Under the pieces are notes generated by a model that did no database searches, was not told the origin of the DNA, and saw only the letters and a program-made list of their open reading frames with translations. Positions 19,787-54,464 of a stretch of 64,000 nucleotides of DNA are shown here, one piece after another. Source of the stretch: an uncultured Ruminococcus sp. Its GTDB lineage: Bacteria; Bacillota; Clostridia; Oscillospirales; CAG-272. The DNA lies in contig CAZPYK010000003.1 in NCBI GenBank assembly GCA_964590755.1, positions 3,382 to 67,381 on the forward strand, read 5' to 3'. Position 1 is the stretch's first letter; each line of letters starts with the position of its first letter. The translations under genes and the position numbers were made by a program.

Positions 19787-20872
19787 ATGTACGGCGACGA
19801 ATTGAGTATCCGCAAAAAAGCGATACTTAAAGCGGTGGTCGAATCGTATATTGAAAACGGCGATCCCGTAGGGTCGAGATCCTTGCAGCAGCTTCCGAAC
19901 ATGAGATGCTCCTCGGCAACGATACGAAACGAGATGGCTGAGCTTGAAAGCATGGGTTATCTTGAGCAGCCGCACACCTCTGCGGGGCGGGTACCGTCTC
20001 AGTTGGGTTATCGCTTTTATGTCGATCAGCTGATAGAGCATTACGCCATGACGACCGGTGAGATAGCTCAGATAAGTCAGGTGCTTAAGAGCAAGACGAG
20101 CGAGGTCGATCAGATATTGCTTGCGGCTTCCCGCCTTGCGTCGGCGCTTACTAATTATACCGGTATCGCCGCAAAGCCGAGGTGTGAATCGGTTACGATA
20201 ACAAGGTTTGAGTCCGCTTTCATTGATGAGTTTAATTTCGTTCTTATAATGATAAGTTCGGTCGGCTCGGTCATATCGAAGCACATACGCCTTAACGCGC
20301 CGATCGGGCAGGAGAGCGTGCTCAGGCTCACCGGTGCACTCAACGATAATATTTTGGGGCTTTCCGCAAACGAGATAAATCTTCCGGTAATAATGCGTCT
20401 TGAGGCGTCGATGGGAGATGAGGCGCCGCTCATCGGTCCGATAATCAAGACGGTGTATGCCACCATGACCGAGCTGGACGGCGGAGAGTTGAGGCTTTCG
20501 GGCATAAATCATCTTTTGCAATATCAGGATTATGCCGATACCGATGAGCTCAAGGATCTGCTGGGGACGCTTGAACGCAAGGAGGAGATACTTGATCTTG
20601 TCTCAAGGGAAAAGGACGGAGAGATATCGGTCGTGATCGGTTCGGAATCCCCCGTGAGCGTGATGAACAACTCTTCTCTTGTCTTTAAGCCGATAAAGCG
20701 CGGAGACAAGACGGTGGGAGTCATAGGTGTTCTGGGACCGCTTCGTATGGATTATGCACGTGTGCTTGAAACCATAGAGCGCCTTTGCGGAATGATAGGC
20801 GAGATGATAGATTCGGATGCTCCGCAGGCTCCGCCGGCGTTGACCGGTGCCGGCGACTCCGAGGTGCGATAG
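19787..20872 (+). CDS. hrcA: heat-inducible transcription repressor HrcA
   Basis: ELSIRKKAILKAVVESYIENGDPVGSRSL, AGGGAGGTG RBS, and first position in an hrcA-grpE-dnaK-dnaJ arrangement. Confidence 0.93.
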   Translation: MYGDELSIRKKAILKAVVESYIENGDPVGSRSLQQLPNMRCSSATIRNEMAELESMGYLEQPHTSAGRVPSQLGYRFYVDQLIEHYAMTTGEIAQISQVLKSKTSEVDQILLAASRLASALTNYTGIAAKPRCESVTITRFESAFIDEFNFVLIMISSVGSVISKHIRLNAPIGQESVLRLTGALNDNILGLSANEINLPVIMRLEASMGDEAPLIGPIIKTVYATMTELDGGELRLSGINHLLQYQDYADTDELKDLLGTLERKEEILDLVSREKDGEISVVIGSESPVSVMNNSSLVFKPIKRGDKTVGVIGVLGPLRMDYARVLETIERLCGMIGEMIDSDAPQAPPALTGAGDSEVR

Positions 20873-32084: not shown

Positions 32085-32113
32085 TTGCATGTGAGAGAAA
32101 AATATAGTATAAT
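32085..32113 (+). promoter_or_regulatory. sigma-A promoter (TTGCAT-17-TATAAT) driving the rhaA leader
   Basis: TTGCAT lies at 32085-32090 and TATAAT at 32108-32113 with a 17-nt spacer. The predicted start site falls at the beginning of the first tandem repeat unit. Confidence 0.6.
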
Positions 32114-32335
32114 AGGTTCGGAATGTGATACACAGCAGATTTAATAGTTCTGTTTCCTCACCTTGACTTCAAACGCCGACGCGTTTGAAGTCCGAAGCGG
32201 GGTACAGAATTTTATAGTATGGTTGGTTCGGAATGTGATACACAGCAGATTTAATAGTTCTGTTTCCTCACCTTGACTTCAAACGCCGACGCGTTTGAAG
32301 TCCGAAGCGTGGTACGGAATTTATAGTTCGGAATA
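32103..32335 (+). repeat. tandem direct repeat, period 110 nt, two full units plus a truncated third start
   Basis: 32116-32199 is identical to 32226-32309 (84 of 84 nt). The flanks are near-identical, and a third TATAG-TTCGGAAT start lies at 32322-32335. Confidence 0.9.
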
Positions 32336-32380
32336 ATTTTTAAAAATATCATATAAAGCTTGAAAGGTCGGTGATCTTTA

Positions 32381-33637
32381 ATGGATCGAAATGTTATCTA
32401 CGAGAATGCGCGAGAGCGTTATGCCAAGATCGGAGTCGATACCGAAGCTGCGTTGGCGACTCTCATGTCCACACCGATATCCATGCACTGTTGGCAGGGG
32501 GATGATGTGCGCGGCTTTGAAGGTGCATGTGCTCTTGACGGAGGTATTCAGGCAACGGGGAATTATCCCGGAGCTGCGCGCACTCCAACCGAGCTTATGA
32601 GTGATATGGATAAGGCGCTCTCTCTTATTCCGGGTAAGCACAAAATAAACCTCCATGCGTCCTATGCCGTCTTTGACGGCGAGGTTCATGCCGACAGGGA
32701 TGCGCTGCTGCCCGAGCATTTTGCGCCGTGGGTGCGCTTTGCCAAGGAGCGCGGTCTGGGCATTGATTTTAATCCCACGTTTTTCTCGCATCCGATGGCG
32801 GCATCGGGGCTTACGCTTTCAAGCCCGGATGAGAGCATTCGCGGCTTTTGGGTCCGTCACGGTATTGCTTGTCTGCGAATAGCCGAGTATTTTGCGCGCG
32901 AGACCGGGACAAAGTGTCTTATGAACATATGGATCCCGGACGGGTATAAGGATGTCCCGGCCGACCGTTTGGGGCCGCGTATGCGTTTTGCCCGTTCGCT
33001 TGATGAGATCCTGGGGGCGGGATACGATCGTGAGCTTGTGGCGGTGTCTCTGGAATCCAAGGTCTTCGGAATAGGGCTTGAATCCTACACGGTCGGCTCG
33101 TCCGAATTCTGCCTTGAATACAGTGCGCGTCACGGACTTGTTCCGCTCATGGATAACGGACATTATCATCCTACCGAGAAGGTGAGCGATAAGATATCGT
33201 CGATGCTTTTGTTTTCGGAAAACATAGCGTTGCATGTTACGCGAGCCGTCAGGTGGGACAGCGACCATGTCGTGCTGTTTGATGACGAGACACGCGAGAT
33301 CGCAAAGGAGATAGTCGGATGCGACGCGCTTGGGCGCACATATCTTGCGCTTGATTATTTTGATGCAAGCATAAATCGCGTGGCGGCATGGGTGATAGGT
33401 ATGCGAAATCTGCAAAAGGCACTGCTTTCGGCATTACTTATGCCACATAAAAAGCTTACCGAGCTTCAGAACAATGCCGAATTTACCGAGCTTTTGATCA
33501 TGAACGAAGAATTGAAAACGCTTCCGTTCGGCGCGGTGTGGGAGGAGTTTTGCACACGTGCGGGAGTTCCCGTCGAGCTTGGGTGGTATAATGAAGTATC
33601 TAAATACGAGAGAGATGTACTTTCTCTGCGCAATTGA
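32381..33637 (+). CDS. rhaA: L-rhamnose isomerase
   Basis: Collinear with E. coli RhaA as I recall it: SMHCWQGDDV, GGIQATGNYPG, MNIWIPDG, ESKVFGIGLESYTVGS, RWDSDHVV, DYFDASINRVAAWVIG. Confidence 0.93.
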   Translation: MDRNVIYENARERYAKIGVDTEAALATLMSTPISMHCWQGDDVRGFEGACALDGGIQATGNYPGAARTPTELMSDMDKALSLIPGKHKINLHASYAVFDGEVHADRDALLPEHFAPWVRFAKERGLGIDFNPTFFSHPMAASGLTLSSPDESIRGFWVRHGIACLRIAEYFARETGTKCLMNIWIPDGYKDVPADRLGPRMRFARSLDEILGAGYDRELVAVSLESKVFGIGLESYTVGSSEFCLEYSARHGLVPLMDNGHYHPTEKVSDKISSMLLFSENIALHVTRAVRWDSDHVVLFDDETREIAKEIVGCDALGRTYLALDYFDASINRVAAWVIGMRNLQKALLSALLMPHKKLTELQNNAEFTELLIMNEELKTLPFGAVWEEFCTRAGVPVELGWYNEVSKYERDVLSLRN

Positions 33638-33683: not shown

Positions 33684-36600
33684 ATGCTGTATTCAAAAAA
33701 ATCTTCAAAGGAACTTTCGGCAGAGCTTTTTGCGTCTCCGACCTCGGAATATCGCGGTGCGCCGTTTTGGGCGTGGAACTGCCGACTTGAAAGGGACGAG
33801 CTCTTGCGCCAGACAGAAATATTGAAGGAGATGGGCTTTGGCGGGTATCACATGCATGTGCGCTCCGGAATGGCGACCGAATATTTGGGTCGAGAGTTTA
33901 TGGGTCATATTCGCGCATGCGTGGATAAGGCGCGCGATCAAAAAATGCTTGCGTGGCTTTACGACGAGGATCGCTGGCCCTCCGGCTTTGCGGGCGGGCT
34001 GGTTACAAAGGATGAAAAATATCGCATAAGATATCTGCTTTTTACGCCTTTTTCATATGAGGAGGTCGGGGGCAAGATACGCTACGGTAACGAGCAGGCT
34101 ACGGCGCTTCGCAGCGGCAATGGGCGGTTGCTTGCGCGTTATTCGGTAACTCTCGACAAGCGCGGCTGTCTTGCGGCGTATCGCAGGCTTGCCGATGGTG
34201 AAAAGCCTGACGTTGGCGGAAGGAGCTTTTATGCTTATCTTGAAATGCCGCACACTTCCGCGCGATATAACGGCTACACATATGTCAACACTATGGATCG
34301 TAAGGCGATCGAACGCTTTATCGAGGTCACCCACGAGGCGTATCTGCGTGAGGTCGGAGATGAGTTCGGAAGGACCGTGCCTGCCATATTTACCGACGAG
34401 CCGCAGTTCACGCATAAGCAAACCTTGAGTTCTGCCGATTCTCTTGAGGATGTGGCGCTTCCGTGGACCGATGATCTTGAGGATACCTATCGAAGCGCGT
34501 ACGGCGTCTCGTTGCTTGACAGCCTTCCCGAGCTTATATGGGAGCTTCCGGAAGGAGTATCAACGATCAGATATCATTATCACGATCACGCCTGCGAGCG
34601 TTTTGCAACTGCGTTTGCCGACACTCTCGGATCGTGGTGCGATGCTCACGGTATAGCTCTTACCGGACACATGATGAAAGAGCCGACTCTCGGCACGCAG
34701 ACCTTTGCCGTCGGCGAGGCGATGCGCTCGCTGCGCGCTTTTGCGCTTCCCGGCATCGATATGCTTGCCAACAGGCATGAATATACGACCGTAAAGCAGG
34801 CGGCGTCTGTCGCGCATCAATACGGTCGAGAGGGAGTGCTCAGCGAGCTTTACGGTGTGACGGATTGGGATTTTGATTTTCGCGGGTACAAGCTTCAAGG
34901 AGATTGGCAGGCAGCTCTCGGTGTTACCGTGCGGGTGCCGCATCTTTCGTGGGTATCCATGGAAGGAGAAGCGAAACGTGATTACCCCGCTTCCATTAAC
35001 TATCAATCCCCGTGGTACCGTAAGTATCCTTTGGTAGAGAATCATTTTGCGCGTCTCAAAACCGCGCTCACGCGCGGCAAAGCGGAAATAAGAGTGGGAG
35101 TCATTCATCCCATAGAATCCTATTGGCTGCATTGGGGGCCTGCGGAACAGACCGCGCTCGTGCGCAGCACGCTGGATTCTCAATTTGCAAATGTCACGGA
35201 ATGGCTGCTTTTCGGTTCTGTGGATTTCGATTTCATCTCCGAATCGCTGTTGCCGTCGCTTTGCCCTAACGGTGGTGCTCCGTTAAAGGTGGGCAGCATG
35301 GAATATGATGTCATTATAGTTCCGGGCTGCGAAACGCTTCGCCGCACCACCTGCGAACGTCTTGAGGCGTTCCGCGCAAACGGCGGAAGGCTGATATTCT
35401 TGGGCAGTGCTCCGAAATACTTGGATGCCGTGGCTTCCGACAGGCCGAAAGCATTGTTCGAAATATCTGAGCAGATCGGCTTTTCGCGCGGTGAGCTGTT
35501 GTCCGCGCTTGACTCGGAGCGGATTGCGGATATAAGGCAAGCAAACGGAGAGCTCACGACCGAGCTGGTCCATCAGCTTCGTCGCGACGGTAACGGTCGA
35601 TGGCTGTTTATTGCACGAGGTAAGGATCCTTCAAATAAGGATATATCGAAAAAACGGAAGATAAAGGTCACTGTTCGCGGAATTTGGCGTGCGAGACTTT
35701 ACGATACGATGAGCGGCGGTATACTGCCGACGGCTTTTCGACATGTCGACGGCAACACCGTAATGAATTATGAGCTTTGGATGCATGACAGTCTGCTTAT
35801 AAGGTTGGATCCCTGCGCGGAGGCGGACGAATATCTGCCGATGCCGTCGAAAAAAACGGCGCAAGCTTGTATAAAGCTTCCTTGCCGTGTGCCCTTTAAG
35901 CTTTGCGAGCCGAATGTATTGCTGCTTGACAAAGCCGAGCTTTCATTTGACGGCAGCGCGTTTGAACCGGAAGAGGAGCTTTTGCGCGCGGACACGCGGC
36001 TTCGCAAACGGCTGGGGTGGGAGCCGTGGGGCGGAAGCTCAAATCAGCCGTGGTGTATTCCGGCAGAGGAACCGACGCATAGAGTGAGACTCAGATTCAC
36101 AATAGAAAGCAAGATCGCGGTAAGCGGTGTGCACCTTGCGCTTGAATGTGCCGAAAGCACCGAGATCACCTTGAACGGTGTGCATGTTCCGTCGAATGTT
36201 GATGGCTTTTACGTTGATCGCGCGATCAAAACTGTGCCGCTGCCAGATATCCCCGCGGGAGCATCCGTGCTTGAGCTTGCGTCTCCGTTCGGCAGGCGCA
36301 CGGCAATAGAATGGTGCTATCTGCTCGGAAGTTTTGGCGTTGAACTGCACGGTGCATACAGATGTATCACCGAAATGCCGAAGCTGCTTGCATGGGATAC
36401 GATAACGACGCAAGGTATGCCGTTCTACGGCGGCAAGCTTGATTATCTTGCGGAGATCGACACTCACGGAGGAGATGTGAGCCTGCGCTTGCCTCAATAT
36501 CGCGCGGCGGTATATGAGTGCTCACTTGATGACGGCGAGCCGACAGTGGGCGCGTTTGCACCATATGAAGTGACATGGCGCGACGTTCCTGCCGGTAAGC

Positions 36601-36788
36601 ACCGCATTAATATCGCGCTTTATATATCACGCGCCAATGCTTTCGGACATCTGCACTGCGCCGACCGCAAGCTTTCGTATGCCGCTCCGGGTGCGTGGAG
36701 AACCTCGGGCGACGCGTGGTGCGATGAATACCGAGTGCTTGATGAGGGCTTGCTTGTCGCTCCGGTGATATGTGAGTCTGAAAAGTAA
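33684..36788 (+). CDS. large cytoplasmic glycoside-hydrolase-like protein (family unresolved, possibly rhamnosidase-type)
   Basis: A 1034-aa ORF with no signal peptide. The N-terminus YRGAPFWAWNCRLERDELLRQTEILKEMGFGGYHMHVRSGM resembles the TIM-barrel start of GH106-like / 'glycosylhydrolase-like jelly-roll' proteins. It is adjacent to rhaA. Confidence 0.6.
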   Translation: MLYSKKSSKELSAELFASPTSEYRGAPFWAWNCRLERDELLRQTEILKEMGFGGYHMHVRSGMATEYLGREFMGHIRACVDKARDQKMLAWLYDEDRWPSGFAGGLVTKDEKYRIRYLLFTPFSYEEVGGKIRYGNEQATALRSGNGRLLARYSVTLDKRGCLAAYRRLADGEKPDVGGRSFYAYLEMPHTSARYNGYTYVNTMDRKAIERFIEVTHEAYLREVGDEFGRTVPAIFTDEPQFTHKQTLSSADSLEDVALPWTDDLEDTYRSAYGVSLLDSLPELIWELPEGVSTIRYHYHDHACERFATAFADTLGSWCDAHGIALTGHMMKEPTLGTQTFAVGEAMRSLRAFALPGIDMLANRHEYTTVKQAASVAHQYGREGVLSELYGVTDWDFDFRGYKLQGDWQAALGVTVRVPHLSWVSMEGEAKRDYPASINYQSPWYRKYPLVENHFARLKTALTRGKAEIRVGVIHPIESYWLHWGPAEQTALVRSTLDSQFANVTEWLLFGSVDFDFISESLLPSLCPNGGAPLKVGSMEYDVIIVPGCETLRRTTCERLEAFRANGGRLIFLGSAPKYLDAVASDRPKALFEISEQIGFSRGELLSALDSERIADIRQANGELTTELVHQLRRDGNGRWLFIARGKDPSNKDISKKRKIKVTVRGIWRARLYDTMSGGILPTAFRHVDGNTVMNYELWMHDSLLIRLDPCAEADEYLPMPSKKTAQACIKLPCRVPFKLCEPNVLLLDKAELSFDGSAFEPEEELLRADTRLRKRLGWEPWGGSSNQPWCIPAEEPTHRVRLRFTIESKIAVSGVHLALECAESTEITLNGVHVPSNVDGFYVDRAIKTVPLPDIPAGASVLELASPFGRRTAIEWCYLLGSFGVELHGAYRCITEMPKLLAWDTITTQGMPFYGGKLDYLAEIDTHGGDVSLRLPQYRAAVYECSLDDGEPTVGAFAPYEVTWRDVPAGKHRINIALYISRANAFGHLHCADRKLSYAAPGAWRTSGDAWCDEYRVLDEGLLVAPVICESEK

Positions 36789-36844: not shown

Positions 36845-37585
36845 ATGGATCTTATTCGGTTGCTTTTTATAGTTTGTATCGCCTTTGGAGCAAGCTTTAT
36901 ACAACGTGTTTCCGGCTTTGGGCTCGGCATCTTTGCCATGACCTTTTTGCCGTACATAATGAGCGAATACACCGAGGCAAACGTATTGACCTCCATGATC
37001 TCGCTTATCATGTCATTTTCGGTCGTTTGCCGTATGTTTGGGCATATACATTGGAAAAATCTGATATGTCCGTTGATAGGCAACTTGGTGCTGACGCATA
37101 TAACCGTGAATTTCATGTCGGAATACGGAGATGGCGTACTGCGATTGCTGCTCGGTATAGCACTTGTTCTGCTCAGCATTTATTTTATCAAATTTTCCGA
37201 AAAAGTGCATATCCGTGCCACATGGTATACCGGTCTTATTTGCGGATGTCTTTCGGGGGTGCTGGGAGGGCTGTTTTCGATGGGAGGGCCGCCGATAGTT
37301 ATTTATTATATGGAGTCGGAATCTGATCATGAAGAATATATGGCAACCATTCAAGCATACTTTTTTACGTCCGGAATATATTCCTTGATCGTGAAATCAA
37401 AATTTATCACGCCGAATGTATTTGCGGGGTTGGCGGTGAGCCTTGTCGGAATCCTTGCGGGGGTATATTTCGGCAAACGCGTTTTTTCGCGTCTTGACGG
37501 AAAAAAGCTCAAAAAGCTCGTCTATGTATTCATGGCGCTCAGTGGGCTGGCAAATATCGTGACCGCACTTTTGAAGATGCTTTAA
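36845..37585 (+). CDS. TauE/SafE (TSUP) family membrane transporter
   Basis: A 246-aa polytopic protein with FGASFIQRVSGFGLGIF and GGLFSMGGPPIVIY motifs typical of TSUP. Confidence 0.8.
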   Translation: MDLIRLLFIVCIAFGASFIQRVSGFGLGIFAMTFLPYIMSEYTEANVLTSMISLIMSFSVVCRMFGHIHWKNLICPLIGNLVLTHITVNFMSEYGDGVLRLLLGIALVLLSIYFIKFSEKVHIRATWYTGLICGCLSGVLGGLFSMGGPPIVIYYMESESDHEEYMATIQAYFFTSGIYSLIVKSKFITPNVFAGLAVSLVGILAGVYFGKRVFSRLDGKKLKKLVYVFMALSGLANIVTALLKML

Positions 37586-37761
37586 GGCAACACCGCACAA
37601 TTCTTTTTGCTCAATTGCGCGGTCAGAAAATTCGTCAGATAAAACAAATTTCCGCGCGTGTAGTTCATCCTACGCGAAGGGAATTTGTGAAATATGACGG
37701 ATTTTGTGCAAGCAAGTGAGTAAAAAAGGCGGAAGCCGCGAATTGTGCGGTGTTGCCTTAA
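37582..37761. repeat. 180-bp palindromic MITE-like element with perfect 22-bp terminal inverted repeats
   Basis: TTAAGGCAACACCGCACAATTC (37582-37603) is the exact reverse complement of GAATTGTGCGGTGTTGCCTTAA (37740-37761). The interior is an imperfect palindrome. There is no ORF. Confidence 0.8.
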
Positions 37762-37770
37762 AAACAATGT

Positions 37771-54422: not shown

Positions 54423-54464
54423 GTAAAAAAGGCTGGAGCCGCGAATTGTGCGGTGTTGCCTTAA
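54415..54464. repeat. solo right-end copy of the 37582-37761 element
   Basis: 54415-54464 matches 37712-37761 at 48 of 50 positions, including the complete 22-bp terminal repeat. The stop codon of the upstream gene (TGA 54420-54422) lies inside it. Confidence 0.75.

Follow-up and report, generated by a model that had tools for sequence, protein, structure and literature searches.

The closest described counterparts of a structured repeat in the leader of a bacterial sugar gene are minisatellite-like tandem duplications formed at microhomologies; the small intergenic repeats, that is, REP/BIME, ERIC, BOX/RUP and Correia elements and miniature inverted-repeat transposable elements (MITEs); tandem riboswitches and attenuators, e.g., the tandem glycine aptamers; and the operators of the rhamnose regulators, which are of the AraC type (RhaS/RhaR), the DeoR type (RhaR) or the LacI type (RhaR) (Rodionova et al., 2013, PMC3870299). 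The locus described here is the 5′ leader of rhaA, the gene for L-rhamnose isomerase, in a 64,000-nt stretch of the 68,177-nt contig CAZPYK010000003.1 from an uncultured Ruminococcus sp. (GCA_964590755.1); we refer to this whole stretch as the window. Between the promoter of rhaA and its ribosome-binding site (RBS) lies a tandem array with a 110-nt period (plus strand, 32096–32335) that belongs to no described family, whereas the type of event that it records is familiar.

With minisatellite-like duplications the array shares head-to-tail copies, a partial end copy, short direct repeats where the copies join, cores without a difference and substitutions that are concerted between strains; it differs in that the differences between its copies are confined to the linkers (0/85 core positions vs 7/25 linker positions), a pattern more extreme than a simple recent duplication predicts, and in that its unit has no detectable source sequence. 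Like the REP-, ERIC- and MITE-type repeats, the unit is about 100 nt long, non-coding and an imperfect palindrome, and it is a transcribed intergenic insertion that is present or absent between close lineages; unlike them, it lacks terminal inverted repeats, detectable dispersed copies and any associated transposase or REP-associated tyrosine transposase (RAYT), and its copies are direct and tandem instead of scattered or alternating. As in tandem riboswitches and attenuators, two structured units lie in a 5′ untranslated region after the transcription start, with possible competing pairings and with U-rich sequence 3′ of copy 1's long hairpin; however, the array is restricted to one species, provides no covariation, matches no Rfam family, offers an atypical terminator, consists of exact duplicates and not of diverged domains, and has a structure that is not strand-specific. 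Rhamnose operators also present repeated motifs and a palindrome beside a rhamnose gene, but the array departs from them in its geometry, in its position 3′ of the promoter, in its absence from relatives and in that no regulator gene is found nearby (PMC3870299).

We read the array as a young, species-specific insertion into the rhaA leader that was tandemly duplicated, that evolves concertedly and that may have a constitutive effect on the gene; we give this reading a probability of roughly one half. A repeat search identifies two direct 110-nt copies upstream of rhaA (32096–32205 and 32206–32315) that are 94% identical, and Tandem Repeats Finder (TRF) reports 32103–32327 with a period of 110, 2.1 copies, 94% matches and no indels; together with the alignment of the copies, these place 2.1–2.2 copies in the array. 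The copies contain identical 85-nt cores (unit 1, 32115–32199; unit 2, 32225–32309; both on the plus strand). An earlier reading of this DNA, made from the sequence only, had reported an 84-nt identity from 32116 with a 110-nt period; the identity and the period hold, and the core is one position longer at its 5′ end. The cores are separated by linker 1 (GGGGTACAGAATTTTATAGTATGGTT; plus strand, 32200–32224), which contains the 9-mer GTACAGAAT as well as a degenerate version of the −10 region (TATAGTATGGT), and they are followed by linker 2 with a truncated third unit (TGGTACGGAATTTATAGTTCGGAAT; plus strand, 32310–32335), the third unit being TATAGTTCGGAAT (32322–32334); the slightly different 3′ flanks and the truncated unit are just as had been described. 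The hexamer TATAGT occurs as microhomology at every junction (32103, 32213 and 32322). Thus, the array has the in-register head-to-tail copies, the partial end copy and the junction microhomology by which a tandem duplication is recognized. The 9-bp direct repeat GTTCGGAAT flanks each unit (32116, 32226 and 32326), a pattern that tandem periodicity also predicts, and the start-to-start spacings of the 9-mers in the array are 86, 24, 86 and 14 bp. Five occurrences of the decamer GGTWCRGAAT had been claimed for the array; four are confirmed (32115, 32201, 32225 and 32311), and the fifth site, AGTTCGGAAT, matches only as the 9-mer GTTCGGAAT at 32326. The window as a whole contains 5 matches to the decamer vs 0.46 expected, the remaining one being an unrelated match at 20639. 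Two 85-nt repeats with mutually related 25-nt linkers are also not what a CRISPR array looks like (many repeats of about 24–48 nt with unique spacers of comparable length), in agreement with the sequence-only reading.

The gene that follows is rhaA (plus strand, 32381–33637; Pfam PF06134, E = 2e-182), as had been proposed. Its promoter (plus strand, 32085–32113) comprises a −35 box, TTGCAT (32085–32090), a 17-nt spacer and a −10 box, TATAAT (32108–32113). These boxes are where they had been placed, but to call them near-consensus was generous: the −35 box agrees with TTGACA at 3/6 positions, and a consensus promoter scan leaves the promoter unlisted. We accept the promoter because the pattern TTATTGCA(T/A)-N17-(G)TATAAT(A) is common to the window and to the relatives L002, L003, L106 and L107, and not for its consensus score. 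The best RhaA relatives among 185,579 species genomes are only 79–80% identical to the RhaA of the window, and in a large protein collection the identities leave a gap between a cluster at 98% and about 80%. The leaders of four lineages of these ~80% relatives were read (L002, L003/L106, L107/L108). In three of the four, the −10 box is separated from the ATG by 34–37 nt, and in L002 by about 90 nt; the sequence GTATAATA and the RBS-proximal TTGAAAGG(T/C)(C/T)GG are common to the window, L003/L106 and L107/L108, and L002 keeps only GAAAGG at the position of the RBS-proximal motif. Nothing resembling the unit is present in any of these leaders, despite the same promoter and rhaA gene. In the window, the shared RBS region TTGAAAGGTCGG stands 3′ of the array, and the leader reads GTATAATA, followed by GGTTCGGAAT through to AAAAATAT, followed by CATATAAAGCTTGAAAGGTCGG. 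The relatives keep the promoter and the RBS with a short leader; therefore, the window carries a lineage-specific insertion of ~235 nt between promoter and RBS, at the predicted transcription start (plus strand, 32115–32349, by alignment of the leaders by eye with L003/L106 and L107/L108). The insertion consists of the tandem array and an A/T-rich tail, and it is followed by the ancestral short leader with the RBS region (CATATAAAGCTTGAAAGGTCGGTGATCTTTA; plus strand, 32350–32380), which aligns with ACATAAAAGTATTGAAAGGTCGG in L107/L108. An 8-nt direct repeat, AAAAATAT, also brackets the insertion (32098–32105 and 32342–32349), and removal of the 244 nt that separate the starts of its two copies (32106–32349) would restore a TTGCAT-N17-TATAAA promoter; as alternative boundaries of the insertion these repeats are probably a coincidence, with the relatives aligning with the left −10 box.

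The differences between the two 110-nt copies are distributed unevenly: 7/7 mismatches fall in the 25 linker positions and 0 in the 85 core positions, for which a uniform rate gives P = (25/110)^7, that is, ~3e-5 by hand calculation. Six of the differences are in the linker copy 5′ of unit 1, which overlaps the −10 box (32096–32114 vs 32206–32224), and the seventh is 32200 vs 32310; by type, AAA/TTT accounts for three, the repeated −10 region (TATAATAG vs TATGGTTG) for another three and a position just 3′ of the core for one. The linkers have thus diverged by 28%, compared with about 4.5% between whole strains, and with 28% divergence beside identical cores, the full 110 nt cannot have been duplicated very recently as one piece. 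The sequence-only reading had offered a recent or a homogenized duplication; the confinement of the differences to the linkers, the junction TATAGT and the concerted changes favor the homogenized form. The cores remain to be explained as homogenized (by gene conversion or unequal exchange), as held by selection or as having arrived separately. In sister strains, the same G→A change occurs in both visible 9-mers (GTACGGAAT→GTACGAAAT and GTTCGGAAT→GTTCGAAAT), and this joint change is a signature of concerted evolution; the stretch of linker 2 and the third unit varies there as well (GGGTACGAAATTTATAGTTCGAAAT, or GTATGAAAT in one sub-lineage). Linker 1 resembles the promoter-proximal flank at 13/20 positions (AGAAAAATATAGTATAATAG vs AGAATTTTATAGTATGGTTG), and this likeness and the TATAGT at the junctions fit the duplication of a segment that extends from the −10 region to the 3′ 9-mer.

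The sister strains are found in Logan assemblies of >10 other runs (SRR33036xxx, SRR33013xxx) that contain the same species at ~95.5% nucleotide identity and 98% RhaA identity. Their rhaA-side contigs all start 94–95 nt upstream of the ATG, in the hairpin loop of the last unit and exactly 30 nt (k−1) before a base that differs between copies (GGGGTAC|G or GGGGTA|T). A contig that is 100% identical to the window (L082, from SRR10277277, which may or may not be the read set of the window itself) ends exactly 30 nt into core 1. Since breaks at k−1 nt from a copy-differing base are what a de Bruijn graph produces at a repeated sequence, the unit is real and multi-copy in several strains of one species. 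The contigs of sister strains that were reached from the upstream gene (P0124, P0125) all end inside a MITE before the promoter, so that these strains yield only the last 39–40 nt of a unit; the 24 nt of core visible in them are invariant between strains. Another 100%-identical Logan contig, L001, starts at 32362, ~27 nt past the end of the array and not at a repeat boundary, for which low coverage of the A/T-rich tail or a further branch are possible causes. One candidate source of the sister-strain leader (P0002, on L092) turned out to be an unrelated rha operon. Its 617-aa open reading frame (ORF; L092, 5038–6891) matches the RhaA Pfam model in two stretches, as a rhamnose isomerase with an internal duplication or a fusion would, and lies within a complete rhaM-rhaB-rhaA-rhaD operon that also includes a TRAP transporter and a GH88 gene.

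Outside this species we found no homolog. The Rfam 15 models give 0 matches in the whole window at their gathering thresholds, consistent with the earlier statement that the unit matches no known riboswitch or leader class; at E ≤ 10 the only match is MIR8643, a plant miRNA model (27.3 bits vs a cut-off of 135 bits), driven by the two palindromes. The exact hairpin of the unit has 0 matches in GTDB genomes; with its 4-nt loop left free it has 0 matches in viral contigs and 8 in metagenome contigs, all of them unrelated palindromes. These include L083–L088, human-gut metagenome contigs in which AAACGC-N4-GCGTTT palindromes are repeated in tandem four or five times at ~20-nt spacing (e.g., L084, 1300–1420); they resemble iterons or operator arrays, are unrelated to the window and match the hairpin pattern by chance. 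An exact 28-nt fragment from the 5′ half of the core has 0 matches in viral contigs. Searched with blastn ('distant'), the array has no match in plasmids and one 24-nt chance match in phages (E = 0.8), with nothing related. The sequence-only reading had raised the question of whether the unit recurs upstream of sugar genes; blastn of the leader against 80 related rhaA loci finds no homolog, and a covariance model made from both copies and run over 0.97 Mb of related rhaA loci recovers only the copies in the window and the truncated ends of L091, L093 and L094. Within the window, the 28-nt hairpin and the 46-nt 5′ part of the core have no further match with ≤3 mismatches (0 are expected by chance), and blastn-short finds no further copy of the core.

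On our reading, the event began with an insertion into the 5′ untranslated leader of the rhaA-rhamnosidase operon, directly 3′ of the −10 box that is common to the relatives; recombination at short direct repeats (TATAGT, GTWCRGAAT) would then have produced head-to-tail copies of the 85-nt core, and gene conversion or unequal exchange would have kept the cores identical as the 25-nt linkers drifted. The array would be transcribed within a leader of ~260 nt in which each unit forms a stable hairpin, that of copy 1 being ~66 nt long and followed by UUUU. The most likely consequence would be a constitutive effect on rhaA, that is, partial attenuation, pausing or altered mRNA stability with the copy number as the variable; a ligand- or protein-sensing switch appears less likely. 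Several points weigh against this reading. The pattern of contig breaks fits dispersed copies as well as tandem ones, and it is possible that the core is dispersed elsewhere in a genome of which the window covers one region. The copy number and homogenization in the sister strains are indirect, being read from 3′ unit ends only. The identity of the cores could also reflect purifying selection on an RNA or DNA function, which would favor the rival explanations, and the retention of at least two copies across strains that are ~4.5% diverged is at least compatible with usefulness.

A first alternative, which we consider unlikely, sees in the core a small mobile or dispersed repeat of the non-autonomous kind (MITE, REP or ERIC-like) that inserted into the rhaA leader and is found there as a tandem dimer; recent insertion would explain why the cores are identical, and the differing linkers would be target or filler sequence. 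The status of the array as an insertion relative to the relatives, the identical cores beside linkers that are 28% divergent, and a unit dominated by a long imperfect palindrome that folds equally on both strands are all consistent with this explanation, and the 9-bp GTTCGGAAT flanks each unit as a target-site duplication would; after deletion of 32125–32334, ~55 nt of leader would remain. A genuine polymorphic MITE family is also present in this genome. Its element is ~180 bp long (37581–37762) with perfect 23-nt terminal inverted repeats (TTTAAGGCAACACCGCACAATTC / GAATTGTGCGGTGTTGCCTTAAA); it sits between the TauE gene and the spo0A terminator and is absent from that site in the sister strain L091, a half-copy is present at 54443–54463, and a related copy lies just upstream of the rhaA promoter region in all of the ~95.5% strains (L095–L105, positions 1–80). 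It is apparently a polymorphic, active small mobile element, and its polymorphism, which extends to the region upstream of rhaA, implies that small insertions actively reshape the intergenic regions of this species, the one described here included. The unit of the array, in contrast to a MITE, has no terminal inverted repeats: its sole inverted repeats are the arms of the internal hairpin, and its ends, GTGATACACAG... and ...GGTACRGAATTT(T)ATA, are non-complementary as read from the sequence. It occupies no second site in the window, vs three for the genuine MITE, and no related sequence was found for the core fragments or the array in GTDB genomes, metagenome and viral contigs, plasmids or phages. 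A Pfam scan of the larger ORFs across the window revealed no transposase or RAYT gene. The resemblance of linker 1 to the −10 region (13/20) also counts against it, as if the promoter-proximal flank had been duplicated with the core.

Less likely still is an attenuator role: the unit would be a cis-regulatory RNA whose 5′ hairpin (ACAG/CUGU, GUGA/UCAC) forms in competition with the terminator-like long hairpin under the control of a ligand or an RNA-binding protein, the duplication sharpening the response as in tandem riboswitches. The array begins at approximately the predicted transcription start of a promoter shared with relatives, the CUGU can pair with the upstream or the downstream ACAG, and the core is invariant between the copies (and, for the visible 24 nt, between strains), all as expected of such an element. 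The unit also folds strongly (z about −4). Each copy contains a perfect 12-bp palindrome with a 4-nt loop, GACTTCAAACGC-CGAC-GCGTTTGAAGTC (copy 1, 32165–32192; copy 2, with the same sequence, 32275–32302; no strand assigned); a perfect stem had been recognized in the earlier reading, which counted 11 bp. With ViennaRNA, 11 of the 12 pairs of this hairpin have a probability of ≥0.99 and the outermost one, a G-C pair, has 0.74; the z-scores of the fold range from −3.2 to −5.4; this hairpin is the sole robust structural feature of the unit. Copy 1 together with its 3′ 9-mer folds into a bulged hairpin of ~66 nt with a minimum free energy (MFE) of −34.4 kcal/mol (plus strand, 32146–32211; AGUUCUGU...ACAGAAUU, then UUAUAGUAU). 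The claim that there is no U-tract does not quite hold, because this longer hairpin is followed by UUUUAUAGUAU, that is, by UUUUAU in the transcript.

The resemblance to an attenuator weakens when the folds are compared. The three-way junction that had been drawn by eye has a free energy of −22.8 kcal/mol vs the MFE of −34.4 kcal/mol (11.6 kcal/mol worse), the best fold in which its helix P1 is enforced reaches −29.3 kcal/mol, and the pairs of P1 and ACAG/CUGU have an ensemble probability of ~0. The minus strand folds as well as the plus strand (copy 1, −35.5 vs −34.4 kcal/mol; copy 2, −30.5 vs −31.6 kcal/mol); therefore, the structure is a property of the DNA palindrome, and the G-U asymmetry does not support a plus-strand RNA. 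The terminator-like form is confined to copy 1: in copy 2, the outer helix slips into another register owing to two linker substitutions, its terminator-like form is lost, and the stem is then followed by UUAU. In copy 1 itself, the 12-bp stem is 19 nt from the T-run, and only the extended, bulged stem with its A/U-rich base abuts the UUUU; the genuine terminators nearby have GC-rich stems with a T-run within 0–6 nt, and the consensus terminator scan leaves the extended hairpin of copy 1 unflagged. The unit is at best an atypical terminator. The CGGAAT→CGAAAT change of the sister strains would introduce a C-A mismatch unless it is compensated (by our own pairing check). The comparative evidence points the same way: the unit has no Rfam match at the gathering score and no homolog from which covariation could be read, it is absent from the closest relatives with the same gene and promoter, and no RNA motif linked to rhamnose isomerase came up in a search of the literature. 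The structured cis-regulatory RNA that the sequence-only reading had put forward as one of three options is therefore not supported.

A broader version of the regulatory explanation, in which the array is a newly evolved, species-specific module, that is, a hairpin attenuator or binding platform (as RNA or as DNA) for a trans-acting factor, that was captured into the leader of rhaA, amplified to at least two copies and kept identical by selection, is in our judgment slightly more doubtful again.

An explanation at the level of DNA, also raised at the outset, is that the 28-bp palindromes and/or the 9-mers are operators; palindromes that are 110 bp apart (~10.5 helical turns) would allow repression by roadblock or looping. 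We regard this as improbable. The perfect 12-bp inverted repeats lie near +50 and +160, a stretch of 220 bp holds five copies of the 9-mer (with the enrichment of the decamer already given, 5 vs 0.46), the two visible 9-mers change in concert between strains, and the structure is equally good on both strands, as a DNA palindrome would be. The sites of the known rhamnose regulators, however, are 20-bp palindromes (LacI) or direct repeats whose period is 10–11 bp (DeoR) or 21 bp (AraC) (PMC3870299), and neither a 12-4-12 palindrome with a non-palindromic spacer nor 9-mer spacings of 86/24/86/14 bp fits these geometries. The 9-mer is found just upstream of rhaA in none of the fetched relatives; these have the promoter in common with the window and hence, presumably, the regulator too. 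Pfam assigned none of the ORFs scanned in the window, which were those of ≥150 aa from about 7.5 to 62 kb, to a sugar-regulator family of transcription factors.

Finally, that the duplication is an assembly artefact, i.e., a collapse or expansion error in a genome with one unit, is very improbable: the assembly is of the metagenome type and only one full-length sequence of the region exists, but the copies have different flanks, the distinct junction of copy 1 and copy 2 is assembled, the Logan assembly of SRR10277277 branches exactly k−1 nt into the core, and at least 10 other samples branch within the last unit at the copy-differing base.

Several other assignments were tried for the unit and rejected: an integron attC site (which differs in geometry and consensus), a second promoter in unit 2 (where TATGGT lacks a −35 box) and a coding leader peptide (the unit offers only an ATG-TGA and an 11-codon ORF without a Shine-Dalgarno sequence). 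The ATG-TGA is a minimal start-stop ORF in each unit (32123–32128 and 32233–32238), ~7 nt 3′ of AGG/TGG, and is possibly meaningless. A 16-codon open frame ends at a TGA that overlaps the hairpin, making the unit a candidate fragment of the 3′ end of a gene with its terminator; the peptide is too short to search.

The gene downstream of rhaA encodes a 1034-aa GH106 α-L-rhamnosidase-like protein (plus strand, 33684–36788; a weak Pfam match, 2.5e-05, under the gathering score, together with synteny) and is probably co-transcribed with rhaA; it is syntenic in sister strains and relatives. The gene upstream of rhaA is divergent and belongs to the Polysacc_synt family, and the other neighbors are housekeeping genes (hydrogenase, spo0A, dnaK/dnaJ, uvrABC, tRNA synthetases), so rhaA and the GH106-like gene form an isolated two-gene unit among them; the 80% relatives L106–L108 retain this pair with the Polysacc_synt gene and spo0A as neighbors. 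The same Pfam scan (≥150 aa, about 7.5 to 62 kb) finds no rhaB, rhaD, transporter or sugar regulator; therefore, the remainder of the pathway, like its regulator, must be encoded elsewhere.

At face value, the array is an ordinary structural variant: a short conserved leader gained ~235 nt of hairpin repeat between the −10 box and the RBS, and the gene was kept. It also carries a warning, in that an identical duplicated hairpin beside a promoter mimics a tandem riboswitch to the eye and yet fails every comparative test. If the repeat modulates rhaA, it would be the datable birth of a regulatory element in a 5′ untranslated region, absent at 80% RhaA identity and present in strains that are ~4.5% diverged. 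If the array is indeed a regulatory module, its copy number or the binding of a factor would tune rhamnose catabolism, and the species would offer the de novo birth of a cis-regulator at the level of the population.

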